IMG/VR virus record: IMGVR_UViG_3300045922_000293
Coordinates: 1-64,000 of that record
Source of the DNA: a virus
Direction: 5' to 3' (one strand)
Length of the DNA: 64,000 bases
Numbering within the stretch: the stretch's first letter is position 1; each line of letters opens with the position of its first letter. The notes beneath the pieces are model-generated. The model saw nothing but the letters and a program-made list of their open reading frames with translations, was not told the DNA's origin and did no database searches. Shown one piece after another: positions 29,338-52,723 of the stretch. The position numbers and the translations under genes are program-made.

Positions 29338-29861
29338 CACCTTATGAGCATAGGCTTTTGACGAGTGTGCTTGATGCATGGAGGGCGGATAACGGCCCTA
29401 GGATCCTGGAGCAGGCCGTGGATCACACGTCTAAATTCTTAGGGCGCGTGCGGGCGTGTTATAGGATCATGCATCGAAACGCGCCCAAGACGCTCAAAAT
29501 TACAAAAGATGCAAGCGCGGTGTTAGCGGTGTTGCGTGACATGAACGCGGATCTCTTATCAACTCGTCATGTACAGGGGCAAGCTCAAGGTATGGATGCG
29601 GTGTCTCAGGGGATCGCCCGTATTCATGTGTTGTTAGAAGCGTTGATCAAGGAGTATGTGGATCTAGCTAAGCATACATCTGATATGGATGCGGATCTCT
29701 ATGCTAAGAAGGTATCCTATCAGATTGAGGATTTTGAACATATTGCACAAAATTTAACCCGTCTTCAACGTCTAGAAGCTTTGTTAACTGCCGTGTTGGT
29801 AAAGGGTGTTGAAGAAGAAGACGGGGATGAGGTGAGACCCGCTCATGGCAACACGAAGTAA
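29334..29861 (+). CDS. hypothetical protein
   Basis: 175-aa helical ORF between terminase and portal. Confidence 0.6.
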   Translation: MTPYEHRLLTSVLDAWRADNGPRILEQAVDHTSKFLGRVRACYRIMHRNAPKTLKITKDASAVLAVLRDMNADLLSTRHVQGQAQGMDAVSQGIARIHVLLEALIKEYVDLAKHTSDMDADLYAKKVSYQIEDFEHIAQNLTRLQRLEALLTAVLVKGVEEEDGDEVRPAHGNTK

Positions 29862-31596
29862 TCCAGATGCGCGTATAATAGGGACCGTAGAGAGTATTAG
29901 TCAATCACGCCTGAAGACGAGGAATGCACAGATCAAGTTTGGGGCTGAGGCGATCTCGATCAAGAAGCGTGCGAATGTGTGTTTTGGTGTCAGTGGAAGC
30001 GGCATTGATGGGGCTTTCGGGAATGGTGGCGCTGTGGGTATGGGCTATGCAAACAATGTCTATAGCCCGCATCTTTCGACCGATTTTTTGGAGCTTCCCC
30101 AGAATTTGACGGAGAAGCGATCTTATTACCGTCATTTCTATAACTTTCATCCTTATGTCGGGAGGGCGATCGATCTTCATACTGAGCTGCCCTTATCCAA
30201 GATCCGTTTAGCACCCCCGAAAGGGTCTGATCCTAAGAAAAATCGCTATATCTTGAAGTTCTTTCAGACCATGGTGAAGGATCTGAATCTATTAAAGACC
30301 CTTGTAGATGCGACACGTGAATATTATGTGATTGGGGACGCGTTCCTGTTCGCTGAAGATAGTGAAGTGAAATACCCCGATAGTATCTTTTATGATGTTC
30401 GATCTGAGCTGGATGAAGAGGGTCAGGCCCGGCAAGTCAAGATTCCGATTCAAGATGAGTACGTTTTAGAGACAAGAAAGCGCGCTTACTTTCAAAAGCA
30501 CTATAAGGGCTGGCAGAGTCTCACCTTGTTGCCACCTGAGCAGGTCAATGTGACTCACTATCAATTTGCGAACAAGGTCCGCTATGAGCTGCTTGTGGAT
30601 AGTAAGACCCGAGAGTTGGTATCACAGGCGGAGGCCGGAGATGAAGAAGCTCTTGAATATGTGGCGACGATGCCGGAAGATATTTTAAAATATATTCAAG
30701 AGGGCCGCGATTTACCCTTAGACACTGATCCGATGGAGGGGAGCTTTGTCTATCAGTTAAGCCGCAACAAGCCCCCCTATGTGCCCTATGGTGTCTCGAT
30801 TATCGAGAGGTGTTTACGCGATCTTGTGTATCAAGACAAGCTACGTCAGAGCCAGACAAGCATTGCTAGCAGGGCGATGACTCCTAAGCGGCTCATCTAT
30901 ATGGAGGATGGTGACGAGGCGGATGTGGAGAATTTGCGCGATCAGATTGATCAGGCGTTGATGGACCCTGATTATAGTATTGTGACAAACTTTCAAGTGA
31001 ATTGGGAGGAGATCAGCGCGCGCGATCGTCTTCTTGACTTGGGCACCGAGTACGATATCGTAGATCGGCGTCTCCAGGCGGGCTTGAGCGTCACGGAGTC
31101 GATGTTAACGGGAGAGTCCAGCTATTCAGGCGAGCGCACGAATCTTGAGATCATGAACACCTTATATTCATTGTACCGTGAGACGATTCAAACGTATGTA
31201 GAGGAGTTTTTGTTCAAGCCTGTCGCTATAAAGAAGGGTTTTGTGGAGAATGATGAATTCGGTGAAGAAGTCGTCCTCTACCCCTCCTTGTCTTTCACAC
31301 GTCTTGCGCTGCGTGACAATCGTGATACGTTTGATACGATGTTCAACCTGTATAGCAAAGGCTCCTTGTCTATTGATTTTATTTTAGAGTTATTTGGTCT
31401 AGACCCTGAGATGGTCCATGAGCGAGTCAAGCGGGATCTCTTGACCGTGAAAGACCCCGTGTTCAATGATATGATGCGCACGGTCTATTCTGATGTAGGG
31501 CGTCTTGTCGTGGAAAATACGGATGCCGCCCAGCGTATTTTTGCTGAGATGGGCCTTGTGCATACACCCCCGGTAGCGGGCGATGACAGGTTTTAA
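29845..31596 (+). CDS. portal protein
   Basis: YRHFYNFHPYVGRAIDLHTELP, EYYVIGDAF and PYGVSIIERC are portal-like segments; size and position after terminase fit. Confidence 0.85.
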   Translation: MATRSNPDARIIGTVESISQSRLKTRNAQIKFGAEAISIKKRANVCFGVSGSGIDGAFGNGGAVGMGYANNVYSPHLSTDFLELPQNLTEKRSYYRHFYNFHPYVGRAIDLHTELPLSKIRLAPPKGSDPKKNRYILKFFQTMVKDLNLLKTLVDATREYYVIGDAFLFAEDSEVKYPDSIFYDVRSELDEEGQARQVKIPIQDEYVLETRKRAYFQKHYKGWQSLTLLPPEQVNVTHYQFANKVRYELLVDSKTRELVSQAEAGDEEALEYVATMPEDILKYIQEGRDLPLDTDPMEGSFVYQLSRNKPPYVPYGVSIIERCLRDLVYQDKLRQSQTSIASRAMTPKRLIYMEDGDEADVENLRDQIDQALMDPDYSIVTNFQVNWEEISARDRLLDLGTEYDIVDRRLQAGLSVTESMLTGESSYSGERTNLEIMNTLYSLYRETIQTYVEEFLFKPVAIKKGFVENDEFGEEVVLYPSLSFTRLALRDNRDTFDTMFNLYSKGSLSIDFILELFGLDPEMVHERVKRDLLTVKDPVFNDMMRTVYSDVGRLVVENTDAAQRIFAEMGLVHTPPVAGDDRF

Positions 31597-34759: not shown

Positions 34760-35746
34760 ATGAGGTTTTTACCCGAAGACAGTGAATCTCTGGCGCGTCA
34801 TATTTTGAATAACGGCGCAGAGTATGTGAAGAGCCGTGTACAAGGCGCTGAATATGTGTCTGTAAGGCTTGAAAAGGGTTTGCGCGCCTCCGATCCCCCT
34901 ATTTTGAGATTGGATATTAGCTTAGATGATAAAAGTGAGTGGATTAATAATATTTTTGAGAATTCAAACCTTTTTAAAGTTATATTAAATTCTTATGATG
35001 GGTCACTAGAAGTCTTTTGTAGGGGATATCAAAATTCTGTAAAATTCAGAAAATTACGAGTTAAGACCTTACAAGATGCTGTAAATGAGATTAATGCCTA
35101 CATTGCTCAAATCATCCCTGAGTTAAAGATGAGCAAGCGGATCGCGACCAAGTGCGCTTATATAGATTGGCAGAGCGTAGGAAGATCTTTACAGACGGGG
35201 GATCGTGTGCGAGTGTTCAACTCCGTCGATGGTAGGTTCTCCCCGTGGGAGGGTCATATCACGGCGGTCATGGCGCATTTAGGCATGGTGGATGTGCAGA
35301 CCCCCTTTGGTAATGTCCGTCTCCCCGTTGAAGACGTGACCGTTGTGAGCCGTGATCCTGTGTTAGAGGATACAGGCTATAAGGGGTATGATAACACACG
35401 CAATAAGGATGACCTCACGTTGCAGTACACGCCTGAAAAAGTGAAGACGGCATTGTATTGGAAGGCCAAGGGGCGTAAGTATATGCCGACTAGGTCTGAA
35501 GAGGAGAGTGGTAATTATGTCTGCCCTAAATGCGACAGCCCGTTGAAAAATTCAATTTACAAGAAGCGTACAAAGCTGTTTGTGTGTACAAACAATGAGT
35601 GCAATTTCTGCATCCGCCCCGTGGATATCATCCATGCGGAGACGTGTGATGGAGAGGATAAACCTTTGCTTGATGACACGAATCCGCGATCTCAGGTGTT
35701 GCGTATTGTGAAGGCTTATCTAAGCACGGGGGGATATGTGTCATGA
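34760..35746 (+). CDS. multidomain hypothetical protein with an SH3-like segment and a C-terminal zinc ribbon
   Basis: LQTGDRVRV...GMVDV segment and CPKC...CTNNEC; domains are separated by KRIATKCA and KVKTA. Confidence 0.7.
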   Translation: MRFLPEDSESLARHILNNGAEYVKSRVQGAEYVSVRLEKGLRASDPPILRLDISLDDKSEWINNIFENSNLFKVILNSYDGSLEVFCRGYQNSVKFRKLRVKTLQDAVNEINAYIAQIIPELKMSKRIATKCAYIDWQSVGRSLQTGDRVRVFNSVDGRFSPWEGHITAVMAHLGMVDVQTPFGNVRLPVEDVTVVSRDPVLEDTGYKGYDNTRNKDDLTLQYTPEKVKTALYWKAKGRKYMPTRSEEESGNYVCPKCDSPLKNSIYKKRTKLFVCTNNECNFCIRPVDIIHAETCDGEDKPLLDDTNPRSQVLRIVKAYLSTGGYVS

Positions 35747-37233
35747 TACGGTATACAATCGCGAAGGTGTCTACGGTATCCGTGGATAGAGATGTATGGT
35801 CACAATTCAAGAAGGCGCACTCATCCTATTCTACGGGGGTATTCCGTAACAAGCGGACGGCCAAGACCAACAGCTCTAAGGACATCCTCAACCTTTTTGA
35901 TCCTAAGAAGTATATCCTGACACACGCGACAATTATAGCAAGTGTTGACACAGAAGATGTGCCGGGGGTGAAGTTAGGCGAGAACATGTGGGAGGACGGG
36001 CGTAAGATCACCCGTCTATGGTCAGATTACCGTATTAAGAAGGACACAGAGCGTTACATTAACTTTAATAATGATGCATGGGAGCGTCAAAATCTTCTTC
36101 AAACGTTTTGGACATTCATTGGGGGGTACAATTATCAAGAGCACATTCAAGACCCTGAGTTAAGTAAGGGCATTATCTTGGATGCCGTGAGTCGAGATCT
36201 TGGCGACACGGTGTACATTGATATTCTTGTGGCGACGGATCGCTCACATGTTGCGCTTGTGCATGATATTGTCATGAAGAAGATGAAAACGATGTCCATG
36301 GGATGCTCCATTAAGTTTTCAATCTGCACGAAATGTGGGAACATCGCAGCGGATGAAAAAGATATGTGCTCACATATCCGAAGCATGAAGGGCGATACGT
36401 TCAGTGATGCGAACGGAGTTGAGCGTAAGATCGCGGAGCTGTGTGGGCATAGGGAGGTGCCTGAGAGCGTCACATTCTTTGAGGGGTCATGGGTGGAGGT
36501 ACCCGCTTTTGAGGGCGCAGAGGTACGCGCGGTCCTCTACACGCCTGAAGACCTTGATCTGAATGCGGCGGTCCATACCGCACATATCATTCGATTCCCG
36601 TCACAAGTGCCATCCTTTTCTGATTGGACGCAAGCCTTTATAACCTCGCGTGAGGCATCTTTTCGGGATCGTGTAAGTTTTTCTTTTGATGACGATGATG
36701 ATGAAGACGGTGACGGGGATGTGAAGGATGATAAGAATTATTATGAGACGGTTTTAGAAGAGGCTAAAGATCTGGTACAAAATAAGCTCAAGACGGATCT
36801 AAAACGTGAGGTGATGGATAGCCTACGCAAGGATGATGAGAAGACGGAAGCTCCCCTTACCATGGCAGAAGACATGAATGATACGGTCATTGAGTCACGG
36901 CGTCTGGCTCATATTATCAAGGGGATCAAAACGGCTTCTTGCACAAAGGCTGAGATATTTTTAGCCGCCCTCAATCTCTTAGGGAACACCCGCACCGCAT
37001 CGTCATCTCGGCTCCCTATGGAGGCCCGTATTCTCGGTATGTATGCTGTTGCAAAATACAAGAATGCAAACACTTCTTTTTCCAAAAAGTTTCATGGCCT
37101 TTTGACTTTGACCAAACATGCTTCAAATGTGTCTAAGTTTTTAAAGCTCGCTGAAATTCACGCCAAGCGTACTTTAACCCCCTCAGAGCGGGCATATTTA
37201 AGTGATGCATATGTGAAATTGAAGGAATTTTAA
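35743..37233 (+). CDS. prohead maturation protease
   Basis: YNYQEH...SKGIILDA, SMGCSIKFSICTKCGN...CSHI and FFEGSWVEVPAF fit a herpes/HK97-type protease with a zinc insertion; lies upstream of scaffold and capsid. Confidence 0.72.
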   Translation: MIRYTIAKVSTVSVDRDVWSQFKKAHSSYSTGVFRNKRTAKTNSSKDILNLFDPKKYILTHATIIASVDTEDVPGVKLGENMWEDGRKITRLWSDYRIKKDTERYINFNNDAWERQNLLQTFWTFIGGYNYQEHIQDPELSKGIILDAVSRDLGDTVYIDILVATDRSHVALVHDIVMKKMKTMSMGCSIKFSICTKCGNIAADEKDMCSHIRSMKGDTFSDANGVERKIAELCGHREVPESVTFFEGSWVEVPAFEGAEVRAVLYTPEDLDLNAAVHTAHIIRFPSQVPSFSDWTQAFITSREASFRDRVSFSFDDDDDEDGDGDVKDDKNYYETVLEEAKDLVQNKLKTDLKREVMDSLRKDDEKTEAPLTMAEDMNDTVIESRRLAHIIKGIKTASCTKAEIFLAALNLLGNTRTASSSRLPMEARILGMYAVAKYKNANTSFSKKFHGLLTLTKHASNVSKFLKLAEIHAKRTLTPSERAYLSDAYVKLKEF

Positions 37234-39559: not shown

Positions 39560-40435
39560 ATGTCTAACATCGACAACAAAGTGAAGCAGCAGATCATTGC
39601 AAAGTACATCGGTACTGCGCAAGGTCGTCAGAAGCTGGCAGCGTCCATGACGAAGCCTCTACGTCAACGTCGTGACTATTCTTCAGTCGCCCGTAAGACC
39701 TTCCTCGTGGAGGATCTGCCGGACGGTGCGCTCCCTATCTATGACAAGGACCCCGATGTCGCGGCCTATGTCGTGGGGGAAGAAGGCGAAAGTATCATGA
39801 GCGTGATCAAGCCCCGCCGTGTGATCATCCCCCTGTTTGAGATCGCGTGTCTGCCTGAGATTCCTCTCACGCAAGTTAAGGAGCGCCGCTTTGATCTGAT
39901 TCAGCGTTCACAGGATCTTGGGCGCGCCCAGATTCAGGCGGCTGAGGATGAGCGCAGTTTTGCTATCATGGATGCGGTTGCGGTCAACGGTTTTGACAGC
40001 CTCCCCGGCCAGACAAACCCTGACATTCCCGTTGCGGCTCCCGTCACCTCTTCGATCCTCGCGGATGGTTTTTCCGAGATCGAGAAGCATGACCTCCGTG
40101 TTGCCCGCATTTATATGAATGCGAAGGATTACGCAGATGTCCGTAAGTTCGGCCAAGAGATCCTTGACATCCAGAGCCAAGCAGATCTTCTCAAGACGGG
40201 TCTGCAAGCCACCCTCTGGGGTGCTCAGATCATCGTCAGCCGTCTGGTGCCTATTGGCACCTTGTACATCTGTTGTGACCCTGAGATGTTTGGTCGCATC
40301 CCCGTCCGCACTGAGCTGACCGTCCTCTCCGCGGACGATCCCCGTGCCCGCACGATTGGTTTCAGTATCTTCGAGCAGCTCGGAATCGGCGCGACTAACC
40401 CCCGTGGCCTTCAGCGTTTGATCGTGAGCCGCTGA
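39560..40435 (+). CDS. major capsid protein (HK97 fold)
   Basis: GAGGAG upstream and biased codon use; GRQKLAASM...RDYSSVARK...LPDGALPIYDKD and LWGAQIIVS resemble short large-myovirus capsid proteins; follows protease and scaffold. Confidence 0.85.
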   Translation: MSNIDNKVKQQIIAKYIGTAQGRQKLAASMTKPLRQRRDYSSVARKTFLVEDLPDGALPIYDKDPDVAAYVVGEEGESIMSVIKPRRVIIPLFEIACLPEIPLTQVKERRFDLIQRSQDLGRAQIQAAEDERSFAIMDAVAVNGFDSLPGQTNPDIPVAAPVTSSILADGFSEIEKHDLRVARIYMNAKDYADVRKFGQEILDIQSQADLLKTGLQATLWGAQIIVSRLVPIGTLYICCDPEMFGRIPVRTELTVLSADDPRARTIGFSIFEQLGIGATNPRGLQRLIVSR

Positions 40436-44753: not shown

Positions 44754-44800
44754 CAGGTCTTTGATGTAGGAAAATCGGATAGACAAGAGGAGATTTCAAA

Positions 44801-45214
44801 ATGGCTCGTATTACCGTAATTGATAGTGATGTAAAGGCAAGTATTTATCTTCAGGATCTTGAGCGCAGGCAGCGTCAGACGATCTTCCCCCCGGGGCAGG
44901 ATCAATATATCCGCCCTATTGATCTTGCTGCACTTCAGGCAAAGCTCGATGCGTTGGGCAGTGCAGTGCTAGCAGCGGCCTTTGTTGCTGCGACCGTGGA
45001 TGTGGATGATATCAGTCTTGCGACCCTTGAGGCTGAGGCAGGTGTTGTGTTGACCCCTGAGCAAGCCCAAGAGCTTCAAGATGTGCTCAGTGCTCGCATC
45101 GTTGAGACGGGGAATTTTCTTCTATCCTTTGATCGTGGTCAGATTTCAAAACTCATTGAGCAGGGCACAGTCAAGGTCTTCACCGAGAACGGATCGGGTC
45201 TTTTTGTGCTTTGA
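44801..45214 (+). CDS. probable structural protein, paralog of the 44127 N-terminal domain
   Basis: GAGGAG upstream; IYLQDLE, QDQYI and LSFDRGQI. Confidence 0.7.
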   Translation: MARITVIDSDVKASIYLQDLERRQRQTIFPPGQDQYIRPIDLAALQAKLDALGSAVLAAAFVAATVDVDDISLATLEAEAGVVLTPEQAQELQDVLSARIVETGNFLLSFDRGQISKLIEQGTVKVFTENGSGLFVL

Positions 45215-45378
45215 TGACCCTCCCCTCCCGCGATATTCATGAGGGAGGGAATGTGTGCAATCGTATCCCTCTCGCTTTCATACTAGTTCCTTAACTTTTT
45301 GCCAATGTGTCTCTTGATCTTCCCTTGGATATGAAGGCTATAAGGGTAGTCACGTAAGACGATTAAGAGGTTGAAAAG

Positions 45379-45627
45379 ATGTCTATGTCAAAGCGCGTAG
45401 CGCGGTTATATTTGAAGCGTGCTTACGAGGCACGAGGCGCTCTTGAGAAGGTCATCGGCAAAATGGTATCACGCCAATATGGTTTGACGGATCAGCCTCA
45501 GGAATTTTTTGACGATGTGAAGCAGATCGTTTATGATACGCTGGGTACACAAGATATTGATCTATCTGATCCTATGGTGTATGATGATATTCAGCGTGCT
45601 ATTGTTGAAGTGCTTAATCAGGACTGA
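45379..45627 (+). CDS. small hypothetical protein
   Basis: GAGG upstream; leader MSMSKRVARLYLKRA. Confidence 0.7.
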   Translation: MSMSKRVARLYLKRAYEARGALEKVIGKMVSRQYGLTDQPQEFFDDVKQIVYDTLGTQDIDLSDPMVYDDIQRAIVEVLNQD

Positions 45628-45678
45628 TTCACCTCCTCAAGAGGCGTCCATGGTGTAGAAAAAACCCGAAAGTGTGAT

Positions 45679-45729
45679 ATAAGGGCGTTTAGGTCAGGGG
45701 GAATAATCCCGAATCCTAAGCGCCCTTAT
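45679..45729 (+). promoter_or_regulatory. long stem-loop just upstream of the IntC gene ribosome-binding site, overlapping a TGATATAAG extended -10-like element
   Basis: ATAAGGGCGTTTAGG (45679-45693) pairs with CCTAAGCGCCCTTAT (45715-45729) with one G-U; inner GGGA/TCCC stem; GAGGT at 45736. Confidence 0.6.
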
Positions 45730-45749
45730 TTCGATGAGGTCAAACGATC

Positions 45750-46148
45750 ATGAGTCTTACTAAAGAGCAACGTGACAAGATCAACAAGGCTTTTTGGACA
45801 AAGTCTTTGAAGGTCAGATCCGCGACGAAAGACGGCGTGAAATGGATGCTTGTCAAGGATATCATGCGTCATGAAACACTACACAAGCCCCTTGTAAGGG
45901 TGTCCCTACGTGACGGGCGTCGCGTGACCTGTACACACGATCACAGCCTTATTTCACCGGATCTGACACCTCTCCAAGCCTCAACTGCGAGGGTAGGGGA
46001 TTACATTTTAGCGACCATGCCTGATGGTTTTCTGGGCTCGTGTAGGATTGTGAGTGTAGAATCTGTGAATCCGCACTTCTTCACCTATGATCTTTGTGTG
46101 CCGGGTCCAGAGAATTTCATCTTATCCAATGGGATTGTGGCACACAAT
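45750..46148 (+). mobile_element. intein C fragment (IntC)
   Basis: Ends His-Asn (CAC AAT, 46143-46148) followed by Ser+1 (TCA); no homing endonuclease domain. Confidence 0.9.
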
Positions 46149-46376
46149 TCATACTCCATTGGGGGTATTAGTTTAGATTTGAACAAATCTTCTCAATATG
46201 AAAGTTTGAAGGGGAATGCGGAGCAGCAGCTTGATAAGATGCTTGAGTCTAAGAGCCGCACTGTGAAGATCATGCGTGGCTTGAAGCAGAGTCGCTACGG
46301 AATTGGAGTGAGATCAGCTTTTGGCCCCGCGCTCAGTGGAGGCAACATCACCCCAAGAAAGTACTTAGGATTTTAA
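45750..46376 (+). CDS. split-intein C fragment (133 aa) fused to the 75-aa C-extein of a probable head-tail adaptor
   Basis: Block B GRRVTCTHDHSL, block F TYDLCVPGPENFILSNG and block G IVAHN followed by Ser. No block A at the N-terminus. Confidence 0.9.
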   Translation: MSLTKEQRDKINKAFWTKSLKVRSATKDGVKWMLVKDIMRHETLHKPLVRVSLRDGRRVTCTHDHSLISPDLTPLQASTARVGDYILATMPDGFLGSCRIVSVESVNPHFFTYDLCVPGPENFILSNGIVAHNSYSIGGISLDLNKSSQYESLKGNAEQQLDKMLESKSRTVKIMRGLKQSRYGIGVRSAFGPALSGGNITPRKYLGF

Positions 46377-46385
46377 ACTTTTTAT
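46376..46385 (+). promoter_or_regulatory. candidate late promoter motif (AACTTTTTAT)
   Basis: Motif copy at the start of the 41-nt gap between the two split-intein genes. Confidence 0.5.
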
Positions 46386-46417
46386 GGCATTTCTAACAAA
46401 AAGCAAGGTGTGGGGTC

Positions 46418-47188
46418 ATGTCAGCAGTCTTCGTCAGGGGTAGCGCGATAGGCAGGGGGGATTTAGAGTTGTTTACAGTAGACAACGCGAATTTGCCTGC
46501 GAATGTGTTTGAAATCAGCTACGCCATTTATGATGTGACTACGGGGGTTGAGGTCTTGATAGGGTCAAGTGCCCGCACCCCTATCAATCCCGATGTAGGG
46601 GAATATTACGCCGCGCTTGAAATCCCCGCAAATGCGAGGACAGGCCTTTATCGCATAAGGTGGCGTTTGCGTGAAACCGCGACGGCTACAGAGATCGTGG
46701 TCGTGGAAGAATTCACGGTATTAGAAAATCAAACCGTGAATCCTTTAAGTTTGTATTCCCCTATTACCTTGGACATGGTGAGAAGGCTTCGTATTTTGCT
46801 CCGAGATAACTCTCCCGACAGAAATTATCGGTTCAGACCCCCAACGCATGAAGAGACAATCAATCGTTTTAATCGCGTGTTTGGTTATATTTGGGAGGAT
46901 TATGAGCTGGTGGAGTATATGGAGCGCGGGGTTGACTTTGTGAATCTAAGCCCCCCCGAAACACATTTTAATACAATTGATCTTATGGTACAAGCGAAGC
47001 CTGCGTGGCGTCAAATGATCCTCATGGCGGCGATGGCCCATGCCCTGATGGCCTTGAGTATCAATTGGGTATCCGAAGAGTTTTCGTTGATTGGGAGTGA
47101 AGAGATTGACATAGATGTGGACGGGGAGATCATTCGGTGTAGGCTTGATGATCTCTTTGATGCTGTATATTCACATGAAGATGCTTAA
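46418..47188 (+). CDS. N-extein (222 aa) of a probable head-tail adaptor fused to a split-intein N fragment (34 aa)
   Basis: Ig-like N-domain, then a helical adaptor-like region (VRRLRILLRD...IWEDYEL), ending NWVSEEF / SLIGSEEIDIDVDGEIIRCRLDDLFDAVYSHEDA. Confidence 0.82.
   Translation: MSAVFVRGSAIGRGDLELFTVDNANLPANVFEISYAIYDVTTGVEVLIGSSARTPINPDVGEYYAALEIPANARTGLYRIRWRLRETATATEIVVVEEFTVLENQTVNPLSLYSPITLDMVRRLRILLRDNSPDRNYRFRPPTHEETINRFNRVFGYIWEDYELVEYMERGVDFVNLSPPETHFNTIDLMVQAKPAWRQMILMAAMAHALMALSINWVSEEFSLIGSEEIDIDVDGEIIRCRLDDLFDAVYSHEDA
47084..47185 (+). mobile_element. intein N fragment (IntN)
   Basis: SLIGSEEIDI fits block A ([C/S]hxGD/SxxIxI), followed by the usual xRLDDLF strand-helix; strongly acidic. 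Confidence 0.8.
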
Positions 47189-47351
47189 ATGAAGGGTTTA
47201 GATCCCCATGCAAAGATCATCCTAGCTAACATGTTCCATATGAAGATGGCCTCTCTTAGCTCCCCCCTGAATTGGCTCAGCCTTCACGTCCCCTCTCCGC
47301 TCCCGTGGTCCCCGCGCGCATTCTTTCTCTCAAGAGTGAGGTAGTTGTAAG

Positions 47352-50300
47352 ATGGATAAGAAAAAGAACCCCAATTTTGATAAAACCTTGTTGCTTCAAT
47401 TAAGGAGGGCGTTTGGGCCTAGATTCATGCCTTTCTTTGAAATGTACACCAATCTTTATATAATGGGCACGGGCGTAACGCCTGTGCCTGAGAATTTACT
47501 ACAAGAGATGCGTGGCACGTTTAGAAGGCTATCGCGCATGATCGAGAGTGAGATCGCGCGAGACGCAATTCTTGATAGTATTCAACAGATGGGACCTTCT
47601 CTCAAACGTCTTCAGCAGGGACAAGATTTCCCCATGATTTGGCGCACGGTATCACGTCAAATGGGGGCTATTATCTCTGAGGTGGCAAAAGATCGCGGTA
47701 TTTATGTCAAGCCCCGTCGCATCCACCCAGATGGTTGGGTACGTTATCAGCGCATGACAAAAGAGGAGACGTCGCTTGAAAAGCTCAAGGATAGTGATCC
47801 CGAAGCCTATGCGCGTGTTCTTGAGTTGCGTAAATTGCAAAAGGCGATTGCAGAGCAGATTAAGGCCAAGATTGAGGATTCGGGCCTTGTTCCCGTCCGC
47901 AAAAAATATTTAGGCAAGGTCGTTTGGGCCGCTGTGACACCTCAAGGTGAAGAGTTGGTGTACGATGATGACGGCGATGTCCTCCCCGTTGAAGCCTTTC
48001 TGGAGAAGCGTGAGGGTCACCTCAAGAGTATAAAGGCACTGAGCCGCACCGTGAAGGTAGACCTTGAGGATATGCGTTCTATGGATGATGCCGCCTTAGA
48101 GGCTTTAGAGGGTGAGGTCGTGTACACCGCGCTGACGGATGACAAGGCGAAGCAGAACGCGTTGACCCGTATTTATCCTGTCAAAGAGGTAGGATCGCGT
48201 AAGATGATCGTGGAAGGTCGTTTCAAGGGCATTTACCTAGATGAGATGATTAATGTTGTAGGCCGTCAGATTGAGGGTGTAGCCTATGATTTCGATCCCA
48301 AGACGGGTATCCCCCGCGCCCTGGAGTCGAGGGCTTCTGGTCAGCTTGAGATTAGTACGGTCAAGGAGCCTTATGTGACAGTGGGCGATGATGGTAGGCT
48401 CTTTTTGAAGCTCCCCAGCACGCATGAATTCTCTGCCCTCCGTAAGCGCATGACCGAATTGGCCCGTATCAATAGTGGTGTAGAGAAGGTTGCGGGCGTT
48501 CGCAGCTCTCAATTTTTCTTTGAGCCCAAAGATCTAGCCAGCGTGCGTGAGGCTTTGGGGTCTATGGCTTTGAGTACATCTGCGGCGGAGGCGGTGGACC
48601 GTTATTTCCGAACTATTGCACGTCATGAGCTCGCGACAACGGAGGAGAATCTTGCGCGATTTAGTGCAGAGCGTTTGGGTGGTTTTAAAAAGGGTCGTGA
48701 CCTGTATAGCGTTCAAAAGAAGGCTCTCGCTTGGGCTGCCGCCCGTCAGGGATCCGGCGTTTTAGCTTTAGGGACTGGGGTGGGGAAGACAAGCTGCGGG
48801 ATCGCTGCTTTTAAAAGTGCAATGAACGATCAGGAGGAGATGCAAGAGCCCTTTAGGGGCTTGTATGTGTGCCCTACAACGTTGACAGGCAACCTTCCAT
48901 CTGAAGCCTATCAGTTCATGGAGGACCCCAAAGAGTTTCTTGAAAATATTGATGTGTTGAGCTATACACAATTCACCAAGGCAGTCAAGAAAGACCCTAA
49001 CTTTATGCAACGCTATACGATCGTCATTTTTGACGAAGCACAGGAGTTGTCTGGGGGAAGTTCTGAGGCGGCGAAAGCCGCCAGCCGCCCTCACCCTCGT
49101 AAGCTGTTCATGACGGCCTCGCCGATGGAGCGCCGCCCCGCAGAGGTCTACACGTTGGCGGCTTTGGCAAATAATGAGGACGTCACGAGTAAGGAGTTTA
49201 GGCGTAATCGCAGGCTGTTCGAGGCGCGCTTTTGTGAGGAGATCGGCGGACGTTTTGTGTCCGTGAAAAATGATCCTGTGACGCAGAATGATATGCGCAC
49301 ATGGGTACGTCAAAACATCTTCCATACAGATAAGGCACAGGTTGAGGAGTATGTGCTCCCTGATGTTGTTAGAGGCAATACTTCGATTCACATGCACCCT
49401 GATGTGCAGATCGCGTATCGTGAGGTCACATCTAAGATCCGCCTTCATATGCAAGGCCTTGTGGAGAAGTTTAGGGATCAGAAAAGTACCGTGAGATCCC
49501 GTGATAAGATCGTAACTTCTGCCCGCACGAAGTTGGGTCCTGAGTTCAAGAAACTCATGCTTCTTGCGAATCTACCTGATAAAGTCATCCCTGGCGTTCC
49601 GAATCCAAAGATTCAACAGTCAATCCGAATCGTAGAAGAGCGGATTGAGAAGAGTGATCGTGTGATCTTTTTCACCGATCTTCCTGAAATGGCGGAGGAG
49701 AATGCCAAGCGTCTTAGTATGGAGTACCCGGGTACGCTCCATGCGTGCTGTCTCTCAAGCAAGATCTATCTCTATCGTAATGGTGAGATTGATCAGACGT
49801 TTAGGAAAAAAGCCTATAAGTCAAGCACCCGATCCTATGCGGCGGATGAATGGCAAATGTATGTGATGCATGAATACATCAAGCCTAACACGTTTGATGT
49901 GCTTACCGCTAGCCTTACGGCGTCTTATGCGAAGGGTCATAATTTACAGGAGTTCACCACGATCGTTCACCTTGATCGGGATTCTTGGAATGCTGAAATG
50001 ATGCAACAGCGTGAGGCTCGTAGCTGGCGTCAGGGCCAAAAAACATCAGTGGACTGCATCACCCTTGATGTGGTATATAGTGAGACGGCGGATGATTATG
50101 ATCGCACACTGGATGAGATCATGCGATTCAGTCAGGAGATGGAGGAGCAGTTGTTTAATGATATTATCGTCGCAAGTCAGACCCAAGCGCTTGGTGAAGA
50201 GTATTTCACGATGGAGCAGGAGACGACTACGAAGTATCAGGCGCAGCGCAAGATCATGGAGATGTCACTTTCCCCGTATGCGACGAATCATGCTAGGGCC

Positions 50301-50375
50301 GTGGAGGATTCTAACAACGGGGCCATGGTAGAGGAGGAGGATTTCACGGATCTTAACTTTCCTTTATTTGCCTAA
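47352..50375 (+). CDS. SNF2-family helicase with a long N-terminal extension
   Basis: LGTGVGKT, VCP, FDEAQ, TASP, KGHNLQ and QREARSWRQGQ. Confidence 0.85.
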   Translation: MDKKKNPNFDKTLLLQLRRAFGPRFMPFFEMYTNLYIMGTGVTPVPENLLQEMRGTFRRLSRMIESEIARDAILDSIQQMGPSLKRLQQGQDFPMIWRTVSRQMGAIISEVAKDRGIYVKPRRIHPDGWVRYQRMTKEETSLEKLKDSDPEAYARVLELRKLQKAIAEQIKAKIEDSGLVPVRKKYLGKVVWAAVTPQGEELVYDDDGDVLPVEAFLEKREGHLKSIKALSRTVKVDLEDMRSMDDAALEALEGEVVYTALTDDKAKQNALTRIYPVKEVGSRKMIVEGRFKGIYLDEMINVVGRQIEGVAYDFDPKTGIPRALESRASGQLEISTVKEPYVTVGDDGRLFLKLPSTHEFSALRKRMTELARINSGVEKVAGVRSSQFFFEPKDLASVREALGSMALSTSAAEAVDRYFRTIARHELATTEENLARFSAERLGGFKKGRDLYSVQKKALAWAAARQGSGVLALGTGVGKTSCGIAAFKSAMNDQEEMQEPFRGLYVCPTTLTGNLPSEAYQFMEDPKEFLENIDVLSYTQFTKAVKKDPNFMQRYTIVIFDEAQELSGGSSEAAKAASRPHPRKLFMTASPMERRPAEVYTLAALANNEDVTSKEFRRNRRLFEARFCEEIGGRFVSVKNDPVTQNDMRTWVRQNIFHTDKAQVEEYVLPDVVRGNTSIHMHPDVQIAYREVTSKIRLHMQGLVEKFRDQKSTVRSRDKIVTSARTKLGPEFKKLMLLANLPDKVIPGVPNPKIQQSIRIVEERIEKSDRVIFFTDLPEMAEENAKRLSMEYPGTLHACCLSSKIYLYRNGEIDQTFRKKAYKSSTRSYAADEWQMYVMHEYIKPNTFDVLTASLTASYAKGHNLQEFTTIVHLDRDSWNAEMMQQREARSWRQGQKTSVDCITLDVVYSETADDYDRTLDEIMRFSQEMEEQLFNDIIVASQTQALGEEYFTMEQETTTKYQAQRKIMEMSLSPYATNHARAVEDSNNGAMVEEEDFTDLNFPLFA

Positions 50376-50747: not shown

Positions 50748-51356
50748 ATGAAAGCGTTAGTACAGCTCTATCATAGTGTGGCTTCGGATCCTCTGCATCG
50801 GAATGTGATTGAGACGTTGCATGACCTTTCTCTAGAGAAAGGCTGGCAAAATAAGCCCGTCCGTATGGTGGACCGTATCAATTTAGCTCAATCACAGATG
50901 CTTCAAGATATTGTAGAGGAGTTAGAGGAAGATTATGGGGTAGATGTAGATTCCTTGGGTCTTACCTCTATCTCTGTTCGTAGCTTGAAATCGATGGATG
51001 GTATTTCAGAAAAGATGCTCCGCGAGATCGCCAAGTTTGGGGATATGCATCTTATCCTCCGTGATGATCTTGTGCAAGCGATCTCTCAATTTTGTGAGGG
51101 TCAGGGTCTAGGTAAAGCAAAAGAGACGTCATACTCTTATTCTTCTGGATTATTGACTTTGAATGTTTTGAAGGTCCCTAAGAAGGTGGATGCAGAGTTT
51201 CAAAATCTTTTCATTCGTGCGTTGACGGAGTATTTAATCAAACATGTGCCTAGCGCAGCAAACATGTTGAAGTCTGGCACGTTGATCAAGGCTGCCATTG
51301 AGGACCAGGGGACGTTGAAGATCTCTTGGAGCCCTAAGAGCGTGGAGTTGGTGTAA
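50748..51356 (+). CDS. hypothetical protein
   Basis: 202-aa ORF with GAGG upstream. Confidence 0.7.
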   Translation: MKALVQLYHSVASDPLHRNVIETLHDLSLEKGWQNKPVRMVDRINLAQSQMLQDIVEELEEDYGVDVDSLGLTSISVRSLKSMDGISEKMLREIAKFGDMHLILRDDLVQAISQFCEGQGLGKAKETSYSYSSGLLTLNVLKVPKKVDAEFQNLFIRALTEYLIKHVPSAANMLKSGTLIKAAIEDQGTLKISWSPKSVELV

Positions 51357-51358
51357 GG

Positions 51359-52723
51359 ATGTCTGGGTATCCTCCCTATAACAAGCGATACCCCCCTTTT
51401 GACGGGTATAAGGATCGCAAGACATCCCCGTTAGAATGGGAGGATACGCAGTACCCGTTGGCCCCGCTCAACGTGAACGTGCAATGGTCGTTTAACTCCA
51501 CGCTCCCCGCGATGGATCTCTACTGGGACCCGCCGCAGTGGCTGATCTTCAATGGTGTGTTCCGCATCATGGGCGTGAATATCTACCGTGCTCTCGATTC
51601 GGAATATGGGCCTTACTTCAGATTAAATACGGCCCCGTTAGGTTCTACTTTTTACAGGGATGAGACGATCAATCAGGACGTGGTAAATGAAGACGTAAGT
51701 TCTCAGTTTTTGGTCCGCCGTCCGGATCGATGTGTGTTCAAGGTTCAAAATTATCCCATTGTGAAAGCACACACCAACAATTTGTTAGCGGATCATCCCC
51801 TCGATGTCGCCGTGACCATAGATGGTGTCCCTGTACAGGTGGCTCGTGTCTGGGGTGAGACGGGTGAGGTGGAGTTGAGGACGGACATTCTCTATGACAG
51901 CTCTTCCAATGAGCGTACTTATCCGATCTTGCCGCGTGAAGATTCAGTTGTAACATGCTCCTATGCCTATAATGTCAACTTTATAACAAATACACTGAAC
52001 CAGCGTATCTTTTACCGAATGACAACGGTCGGTGTTGACGAGTTTACGGGGGAGATGCGGGAGACGCCCTTACATTTAAGTGAAGCCAAATACCATCATC
52101 AAATGGAAAATGTGGATTATATTTGGAAGGAGGCGATTCATCGCAATAAATGGATTTTGTATCAGGGTGGCGAGCGTGTTAAGGTGTTCATCCGTAAATA
52201 TGTTGGGCCTAAATGCTCTTGTTATGATCAGACAATAGGCCAGCCGCGTAATAATTGTCCCGTCTGCTTTGGTACGGGCGTTCGGGGTGGTTATGAAGGT
52301 CCCTTTGAGATCTTGATCGCGCCCCCCGAGGCGGAGAAGACGATCCGGCAGACGGAGATCGGATTGCGCCAGGAGCAACAGTATGAATCATGGACGGGTC
52401 CGTCCCCTTTATTGAATCAGCGTGATTTTTTGGTCAAGTTGAATGGGGACCGCTACTCCATCGGCGCGACACGTCTTCCCACCAATCGCGGAAATGTCTT
52501 GCAGCAACATTTTCAAGTGGGCCTGATTGATAGCCGCGACATCAGACAACAAGTGCCTGTGACGGGAACCTTACCCTTGGCCTATCCTCAAACGCGCACA
52601 AGGGATCATGATGAGGATGAATTGAGCGCCGTCACCTACCCCCAGATGACAGATAAGTGTAATATTGAGGCTGAGCGTGAGCAGCGCGGTAGAACGCCGA
52701 CATTTGAAAATATAGTCTATTAG
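51359..52723 (+). CDS. probable neck/head-closure protein with an FN3-like N-domain and a zinc motif
   Basis: APLNV...LYWDPP...GVNIYRA...YRMTTV is FN3-like; C-terminal CSC...CPVCFGTG and DFLVKLNGDRYSI. Confidence 0.6.
   Translation: MSGYPPYNKRYPPFDGYKDRKTSPLEWEDTQYPLAPLNVNVQWSFNSTLPAMDLYWDPPQWLIFNGVFRIMGVNIYRALDSEYGPYFRLNTAPLGSTFYRDETINQDVVNEDVSSQFLVRRPDRCVFKVQNYPIVKAHTNNLLADHPLDVAVTIDGVPVQVARVWGETGEVELRTDILYDSSSNERTYPILPREDSVVTCSYAYNVNFITNTLNQRIFYRMTTVGVDEFTGEMRETPLHLSEAKYHHQMENVDYIWKEAIHRNKWILYQGGERVKVFIRKYVGPKCSCYDQTIGQPRNNCPVCFGTGVRGGYEGPFEILIAPPEAEKTIRQTEIGLRQEQQYESWTGPSPLLNQRDFLVKLNGDRYSIGATRLPTNRGNVLQQHFQVGLIDSRDIRQQVPVTGTLPLAYPQTRTRDHDEDELSAVTYPQMTDKCNIEAEREQRGRTPTFENIVY

Follow-up and report, generated by a model that had tools for sequence, protein, structure and literature searches.

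Adjacent genes in swapped order apparently encode the two halves of a split intein in an adaptor-like virion protein of a huge phage

Cyanobacterial DnaE and Nanoarchaeum equitans PolB contain split inteins whose halves are encoded at distant places in the cellular genome, so order independence of split-intein halves is not new in principle. In environmental phages, fractured genes have been described in which a free-standing homing endonuclease, Vsr-like or of another type, lies between the halves of a split intein (Dassa et al. 2009, PMC2677866). Atypically split inteins form a class that has been described as rare (PMC10189870, PMC12707363), and its natural members include AceL-TerL, with an N-terminal intein fragment (IntN) of 25 aa, GOS-TerL, with an IntN of 37 aa and Ser1/Cys+1 (PMC11766414), and PolB16 OarG, with an IntN of 15 aa and Ser1/Ser+1 (PMC10189870). 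Contiguous (cis) inteins have been found in structural proteins of phages, namely portal, minor capsid, and tape measure proteins (bioRxiv 10.1101/2025.01.02.630785; Kelley et al. 2016, PMC5050341). The present study concerns a locus in the IMG/VR virus record IMGVR_UViG_3300045922_000293, a single metagenome-assembled contig of 113 kb with a CheckV completeness estimate of 25%, of which positions 1 to 64,000 are hereafter called the window. Two adjacent genes in the window, one encoding the C-terminal part (C-part gene, 45750-46376) and the other the N-terminal part (N-part gene, 46418-47188), probably represent the halves of one adaptor-like virion protein of a huge phage, joined by a split intein and descended from an endonuclease-split gene whose halves have since changed places.

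As in the fractured genes of Dassa et al., the break in the gene lies inside the intein and each extein stays joined to its intein half, and relatives of the locus share that exact layout. The window differs, however, in lacking an endonuclease and in carrying its halves in C-then-N order, the arrangement N-part, endonuclease, C-part being found instead in 32 clusters of related loci. In addition, the intein is broken near its N-terminus (IntN of 34 aa) and not at the classic endonuclease insertion site, and the host appears to be structural, whereas the hosts in PMC2677866 are enzymes and one protein of unknown function. A short IntN, a long C-terminal fragment (IntC), and similarity to the CatC sequence are shared with AceL-TerL, GOS-TerL, Cat, and PolB16, and the Ser1/Ser+1 oxyester chemistry predicted for the window intein is that of PolB16. 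Compared to the TerL and PolB16 inteins, however, the likely host is an adaptor and not a terminase or polymerase, the order is swapped, and the natural family is far larger, its alleles being empty, cis, endonuclease-split, or endonuclease-free. As in DnaE and PolB, the halves need not be adjacent or run from N to C since trans-splicing makes their order irrelevant, but in the window they lie next to each other in the same orientation, with 41 nt between them, within a phage structural module. The cis inteins of actinobacteriophages likewise occupy virion proteins without nucleotide-handling activity; those inteins are contiguous, whereas the window intein is naturally split and lies in an adaptor-like protein of huge phages. 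In the literature searched, outside of which lay most subscription journals, we found no report of naturally split inteins in adaptors or neck proteins, or of adjacent swapped halves.

Two genes, one split intein, and one predicted protein

Direct reading of the sequence bore out the two open reading frames (ORFs) and the gap between them that had been proposed in the original prediction. The C-part gene (45750-46376, + strand, 208 aa) opens in the middle of an intein, without block A, and consists of a 133-aa IntC (45750..46148) followed by a 75-aa C-extein and stop codon (46149..46376), which begins with the Ser+1 nucleophile in SYSIGGISL. After a spacer of 41 nt (46377..46417), the N-part gene (46418-47188, + strand, 256 aa) encodes a 222-aa N-extein (46418..47083), comprising a beta-sandwich and then most of a helical adaptor-like domain and ending in INWVSEEF, and a 34-aa IntN with its stop codon (47084..47188), where Ser1 is the TCG codon at 47084-47086. 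Each gene has its own Shine-Dalgarno-like motif, GAGG at 9 nt before the ATG of the C-part gene and AAGGTG, located in the spacer, at 7 nt before that of the N-part gene. The two ORFs are on the same strand in different frames, and therefore neither readthrough nor a simple frameshift could fuse them; moreover, any fusion of the genes as laid out would join the parts in the wrong order, so the claim that the reversed order excludes such rescue also stood.

The C-part gene product matched the Pfam family PF14890 (Intein_splicing) with 41.7 bits against a gathering score of 35.8, and its sequence matched solved inteins, including the Pho RadA intein (8e-6) and CatC (6dsl_B, 3.4e-5), the latter from an engineered atypical split intein, Cat being a consensus (PDB 6dsl). 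The intein blocks and the Ser-initiated tail of the N-part gene that had been predicted were all present: IntC contains block B as VTCTHDH (T62, D64, H65), block F as YDLCVPGPENF (D114), and block G as AHN followed by Ser (H132, N133, and Ser+1 at 46149-46151). The class-1 catalytic set is thus complete across the two halves (Ser1, T62/H65, D114, H132-N133, and Ser+1). Across 30 homologous C-parts, L20, H41, D64, H65, S66, D114, A131, H132, and N133 were invariant, and T62 and S134 (Ser+1) nearly so; this conservation of catalytic residues indicates that the intein is under purifying selection as a splicing element. H41, which lies upstream of block B, is a candidate by sequence for the NX-motif His reported in Ser1 inteins. 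With 34 aa in IntN and 133 aa in IntC, the break falls near the N-terminus of the intein, which is therefore atypically split, and all split relatives likewise have N-part tails that start with Ser, 31-43 aa in length.

A search with the N-part identified 592 homologs in three length classes: uninterrupted proteins (~296-306 aa), split N-parts with a similar Ser-initiated tail (~255-257 aa), and proteins that have a Ser-initiated tail and, at a second site (LRDN|[CS]PDRNY), a contiguous mini-intein as well (~403-421 aa). The original prediction had called for uninterrupted homologs reading through EEF-SYSIGG, and such proteins were found. The closest of these, P0002, reads INWVSEEF-SYSIGGISLD continuously through the predicted junction, its residues 1-235 are 85% identical to the N-extein and its residues 216-296 are 80% identical to the C-extein, and its length equals that of the predicted spliced product (222+75 = 297 aa). 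The exteins, which the window carries on separate ORFs, each with its own part of the intein, are contiguous in the intein-free proteins P0002, P0242, and P0244. The C-part search identified 207 stand-alone proteins composed of IntC and C-extein; among the 120 listed, most were ~205-250 aa long (range 141-297), and all of the C-part homologs listed carried PF14890. These homolog numbers (592 and 207) put the observation far beyond chance.

Homologs with a contiguous intein, which had also been anticipated, occur at exactly the same site, for example in L004 (a single 458-aa ORF) and in 19 further clusters. The N-part and C-part of the window are collinear with 11 such cis precursors and no block has been lost; IntN aligns with the first ~32 residues of these 11 inteins, and the split point falls in a loop of variable length among the cis inteins. 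The structural model of one cis homolog, L025 (predicted local distance difference test score, pLDDT, 80-94 across the insert), matched solved inteins (Foldseek E 1e-10; template modelling score 0.72-0.85, normalised to target) and placed the split point past the first two strands, in between a pair of short helices. The cis homolog thus models as a complete HINT domain, as the original prediction expected for the joined fragments, and through homology of the window halves to the cis inteins the two fragments together are predicted to cover the whole HINT fold. The halves also carry complementary charges, with 2 K/R and 11 D/E in IntN and 16 K/R and 6 D/E in the first 60 residues of IntC; strong charge complementarity between halves is reported for the natural split intein gp41-1 (bioRxiv 10.1101/546465).

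Under the proposed mechanism, each half would be translated separately, and the acidic 34-aa IntN would dock on the basic, partly folded 133-aa IntC to complete a HINT domain. Splicing by the class-1 oxyester pathway, through Ser1, the Thr/His of block B, the Asp of block F, His-Asn, and Ser+1, would then excise the intein and join EEF to SYSIGG, yielding a 297-aa adaptor. If this is true, the phage possesses a virion structural protein that can be produced only by protein trans-splicing.

The host protein

It is likely that the host of the intein is a head-to-tail adaptor. P0002 matched the head-tail connector family phrog_17327 over residues 160-256, across the junction (E 1.7e-5), and it also matched gp319 of Tunturiibacter phage Tunturi_5 (PP885688.1) with 29% identity over 93% of its length (E 2e-26). 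Tunturi_5, a jumbo phage, is the only cultured phage of the two records matched in the phage collection; its gp319 is a homolog of the predicted spliced product, but the gene is uninterrupted and has no intein. The relatives of the window locus are phage contigs of 250-620 kb. In the window, the two genes lie in a head or neck morphogenesis module, downstream of the portal (29845-31596), protease-like (35743-37233), and major head (39560-40435) genes and upstream of a virion structural protein gene (51359-52723).

The model of P0002 (pLDDT 73) contains a beta-sandwich (residues 1-102) and a helical domain (residues 109-260), with the junction at the end of a long helix and the segment after the junction (residues 224-232) at low confidence. 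A Foldseek search of the PDB with the whole model was dominated by the N-terminal, macroglobulin-like sandwich, and the likeness to adaptors emerged only in a wide structural search with VIA-align. In that search the sandwich matched macroglobulin-type domains, while residues 111-278 matched adaptor or neck chains of Pa223, cyanophage A4, KHP30, SU10, GP4, T4 gp13/14, and phage 812 (Z 8.6-10.2), those of Pa223, A4, KHP30, SU10, and T4 gp13/14 scoring Z 8.9-10.2 over residues 114-278. At least 15 of the 50 matches listed were phage adaptor or neck chains, including all of those that covered residues 111-278. SPP1 gp15 and HK97 gp6, to which the original prediction had likened the protein, were not among the structural matches listed, the best fold matches being other phage adaptors. 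Taken with the PHROG match, the Tunturi_5 homolog, and the position in the module, the folds support a structural, adaptor-type host at moderate strength.

Several points count against this assignment. The E-value of the PHROG match is weak, the connector label of gp319 is the depositor's annotation, and Z values in the range seen for the helical domain can arise from common helical arrangements (9nwi_A, 9k09_d, 7wmp_m, 7z47_A, and 9lu4_D gave Z 8.9-10.2, below the caution level of ~13 for helical proteins). The enrichment of adaptors among the structural matches is therefore consistent with the assignment, and the Z values are not decisive for the helical domain. The host could instead be some other protein, of the virion or not, that also has a helical bundle and a beta-sandwich, as might be supposed from the lack of any Pfam family match to P0002, the mostly macroglobulin-like Foldseek matches, and the modest Z values; however, this is unlikely given that the chains matching the helical domain come from adaptors and necks of unrelated phages, that the PHROG match spans the junction, and that the genes sit between a major head gene and a virion structural gene.

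Gene order among related loci and the proposed history of the swap

Loci around the C-part homologs were taken from IMG/VR and metagenomes, and their layout was classified by script; a scan of genome contigs yielded a single distant match. The 103 loci with an intein at this site formed 81 clusters at 97% nucleotide identity, approximately 77 of which could be assessed for swapped order. In 32 clusters, the N-part was followed by a gap of ~900-1,300 nt containing an ORF of 310-424 aa and then by the C-part, while 6 clusters had the N-part and then the C-part with a gap of 16-375 nt and 20 contained a contiguous intein. In two clusters (L109/L110 and L139) the C-part stood alone, the 2.6-3.5 kb upstream of it and the downstream sequence both lacking an N-part. 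For 16 clusters the flanks were too short, a downstream N-part being excluded, and for 4 the layout was undetermined. The C-part lies directly before the N-part in 1 cluster, the window itself. Split inteins, fractured genes, and Vsr-like endonucleases have precedents (PMC2677866); the endonuclease-free, order-swapped layout, which the original prediction had read from this record and which holds there, is unique among the ~77 assessable loci. L097, counted among the clusters with short flanks, also shows the unlinked pattern, with a different gene directly upstream of its C-part, so that the halves are unlinked in L109/L110, L139, and L097, where neither the 0.9-3.5 kb upstream nor the downstream sequence contains an N-part. 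In L110, two ORFs of 357-378 aa lie directly upstream of the C-part gene.

Two of the intervening ORFs of relatives were scanned with Pfam, and both matched DUF559 (PF04480, 33 bits against a cut-off of 20.6), one also weakly matching Vsr; these matches identify the Vsr-like family of homing endonucleases that Dassa et al. found in fractured genes. The endonuclease ORF overlaps or abuts the N-part stop with its own start and extends up to where the C-part begins, a placement in agreement with the model of PMC2677866. A profile of 32 intervening endonucleases found no endonuclease remnant in six-frame translations of 44800-47600, and no copy of a Vsr-like endonuclease was present anywhere in the 113-kb record. 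No meaningful direct or inverted repeats, and none of 20 nt or longer, were found at the three borders. A 51-aa ORF (47189-47344) starts right after the N-part stop (TAAATG), where the endonuclease of relatives begins; it had no similarity to the relatives' endonucleases detectable with the profile of 32.

In a quick maximum-likelihood tree built on IntC plus C-extein, cis and endonuclease-split alleles interleaved, with some pairs separated by almost zero distance, which indicates that these genes are frequently fractured by the endonuclease or frequently lose it precisely. The inteins of L038 (cis) and L042 (split), and of L032 (cis) and L026/L030 (split), are near-identical and differ only by the ~950-nt endonuclease ORF; judged by sequence, the pairs L038/L042 and L032/L026 would represent very recent fracture or precise re-fusion. 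Similarly, the uninterrupted P0242 (299 aa) shares a 90% cluster with the split N-part P0003, placing intein-free and split alleles in near-identical phages, and the intein-free adaptor P0002 is 85% identical to the split allele of the window. Empty and split alleles in such close relatives appear as expected for an actively homing element.

The ends of the window halves coincide with those of the endonuclease-split halves, which makes an ancestor with the order N-part, endonuclease, C-part the simplest history that we can infer. This ancestor would have been a fractured gene with a free-standing Vsr-like endonuclease, as in the relatives, that lost the endonuclease and in which a local rearrangement set the C-part gene directly before the N-part gene. 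The window intein itself is on a long branch, and the searchable DNA collections contained no close relative of it; its base composition is that of the genome, so a recent foreign origin of the intein was rejected. Since there is no endonuclease trace, no border repeat, and a genome-like composition, the order swap is probably not recent.

The group of phages thus holds, at one site, all stages of a series: empty, contiguous mini-intein, endonuclease-split, endonuclease-free split, unlinked, and swapped adjacent halves. Such a series allows direct tests of the gene-breaking model that Dassa et al. proposed and of ratchet-like (constructive neutral) evolution, and the window represents the stage where return to a single gene is blocked, because the swapped order leaves no way back to one reading frame by simple deletion, readthrough, or frameshift. 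For protein engineering, the family is also a source of dozens of atypically split inteins that are natural and mesophilic, use Ser1/Ser+1, and have N-fragments of 31-43 aa.

The order swap may have a function beyond being tolerated. It is possible, if rather doubtful, that the swapped, endonuclease-free layout is a selected end state. In that case, loss of the contiguous DNA junction between IntN and IntC would confer immunity to a Vsr-like endonuclease sweeping through related phages, the product comprising IntC and the C-extein would be made first and would capture the short IntN once the N-part is finished, and maturation of the adaptor, and hence the joining of heads and tails, would be gated by trans-splicing.

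Some findings weigh against the history and the trans-splicing proposed here. The nearest relative of known layout is only ~50% identical, the gene order comes from one contig of one metagenome assembly, splicing is inferred from conservation and homology only, and ~75% of the phage genome is unseen and could hold an intact paralog. An alternative is that the halves do not splice at all, and that they either form a non-covalent two-chain adaptor held by an intein clasp or are decayed remnants accompanied by an intact copy in the unsampled part of the genome. With splicing predicted from sequence and the genome estimated as one quarter complete, this explanation has some appeal; however, every catalytic position is intact and matches residues invariant across the 30 homologs, no frameshifts or stops interrupt the genes, and the exteins remain 80-85% identical to an intact homolog. 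Furthermore, no second adaptor copy was found in the 113-kb record, and no second full copy was found in split-gene records rated 100% (512 kb) and 93% (290 kb) complete by CheckV, which means that in those phages the adaptor must be assembled from two chains. Absence of splicing is thus improbable.

Least probable, and very much so, is that the swap is an assembly artefact of a locally mis-joined contig whose true locus reads N-part, (endonuclease), C-part or is uninterrupted: these exact proteins occur on one contig only, no other assessable cluster is swapped, and the coexistence of empty, cis, and split alleles in close phages (P0242 and P0003) means that mixed populations could confuse an assembler, but the swap would need three wrong joins at borders without repeats of at least 20 nt, both ORFs are intact with their own starts and Shine-Dalgarno-like motifs, the spacer is unique sequence, composition is uniform, and the lack of an endonuclease in 113 kb would be left unexplained by a simple mis-join.

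Neighbouring features and a second intein site

Upstream of the C-part gene, an RNA hairpin (45676..45732, + strand) was identified from an inverted repeat with 18-nt arms and from fold energy, the region 45660-45752 folding at -36.4 kcal/mol (z = -5.2 against shuffles). The hairpin ends 17 nt 5' of the gene and may serve to terminate the upstream gene or to control translation. The C-part of relatives is closely followed by a homolog of the virion structural protein gene at 51359-52723, while in the window a 1,007-aa SNF2/DEAD-type helicase (47352-50375) and a 202-aa ORF (50748-51356) separate the adaptor genes from it. These two ORFs look like an insertion into the structural module, and their presence suggests that the neighbourhood has been rearranged more than once.

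In three relatives (L040 1738-2274, L021 128-889, and L017 3-1706), the gene just upstream of the N-part contains a domain 25-32% identical to the adaptor beta-sandwich, which by its sequence looks like a paralogous decoration-like domain. Many relatives also carry a large ORF with zinc-finger-like motifs directly after the adaptor gene (L011 6389-8707, L139 4214-5692, L004 5616-7796, L097 1631-2437, and L109 3343-4208). DUF7487 repeats were present in the two of these that were scanned with Pfam, those of L011 and L139. At its end the ORF has a motif similar to Vsr-like nucleases, and it could be a further selfish element; no homolog of it was detected at 40-52 kb of the window.

Finally, the second intein site of the adaptor family (LRDN|[CS]PDRNY) precedes the first by ~90 residues. 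It is free of an intein in the window, and some relatives carry a cis or split intein at this position (P0014, P0019, and P0090; L006-L008, L018, L019, L027, L036, L057, L071, and L086). Because some relatives have inteins at both sites, up to two splicing events may be required to produce one protein of ~300 aa.

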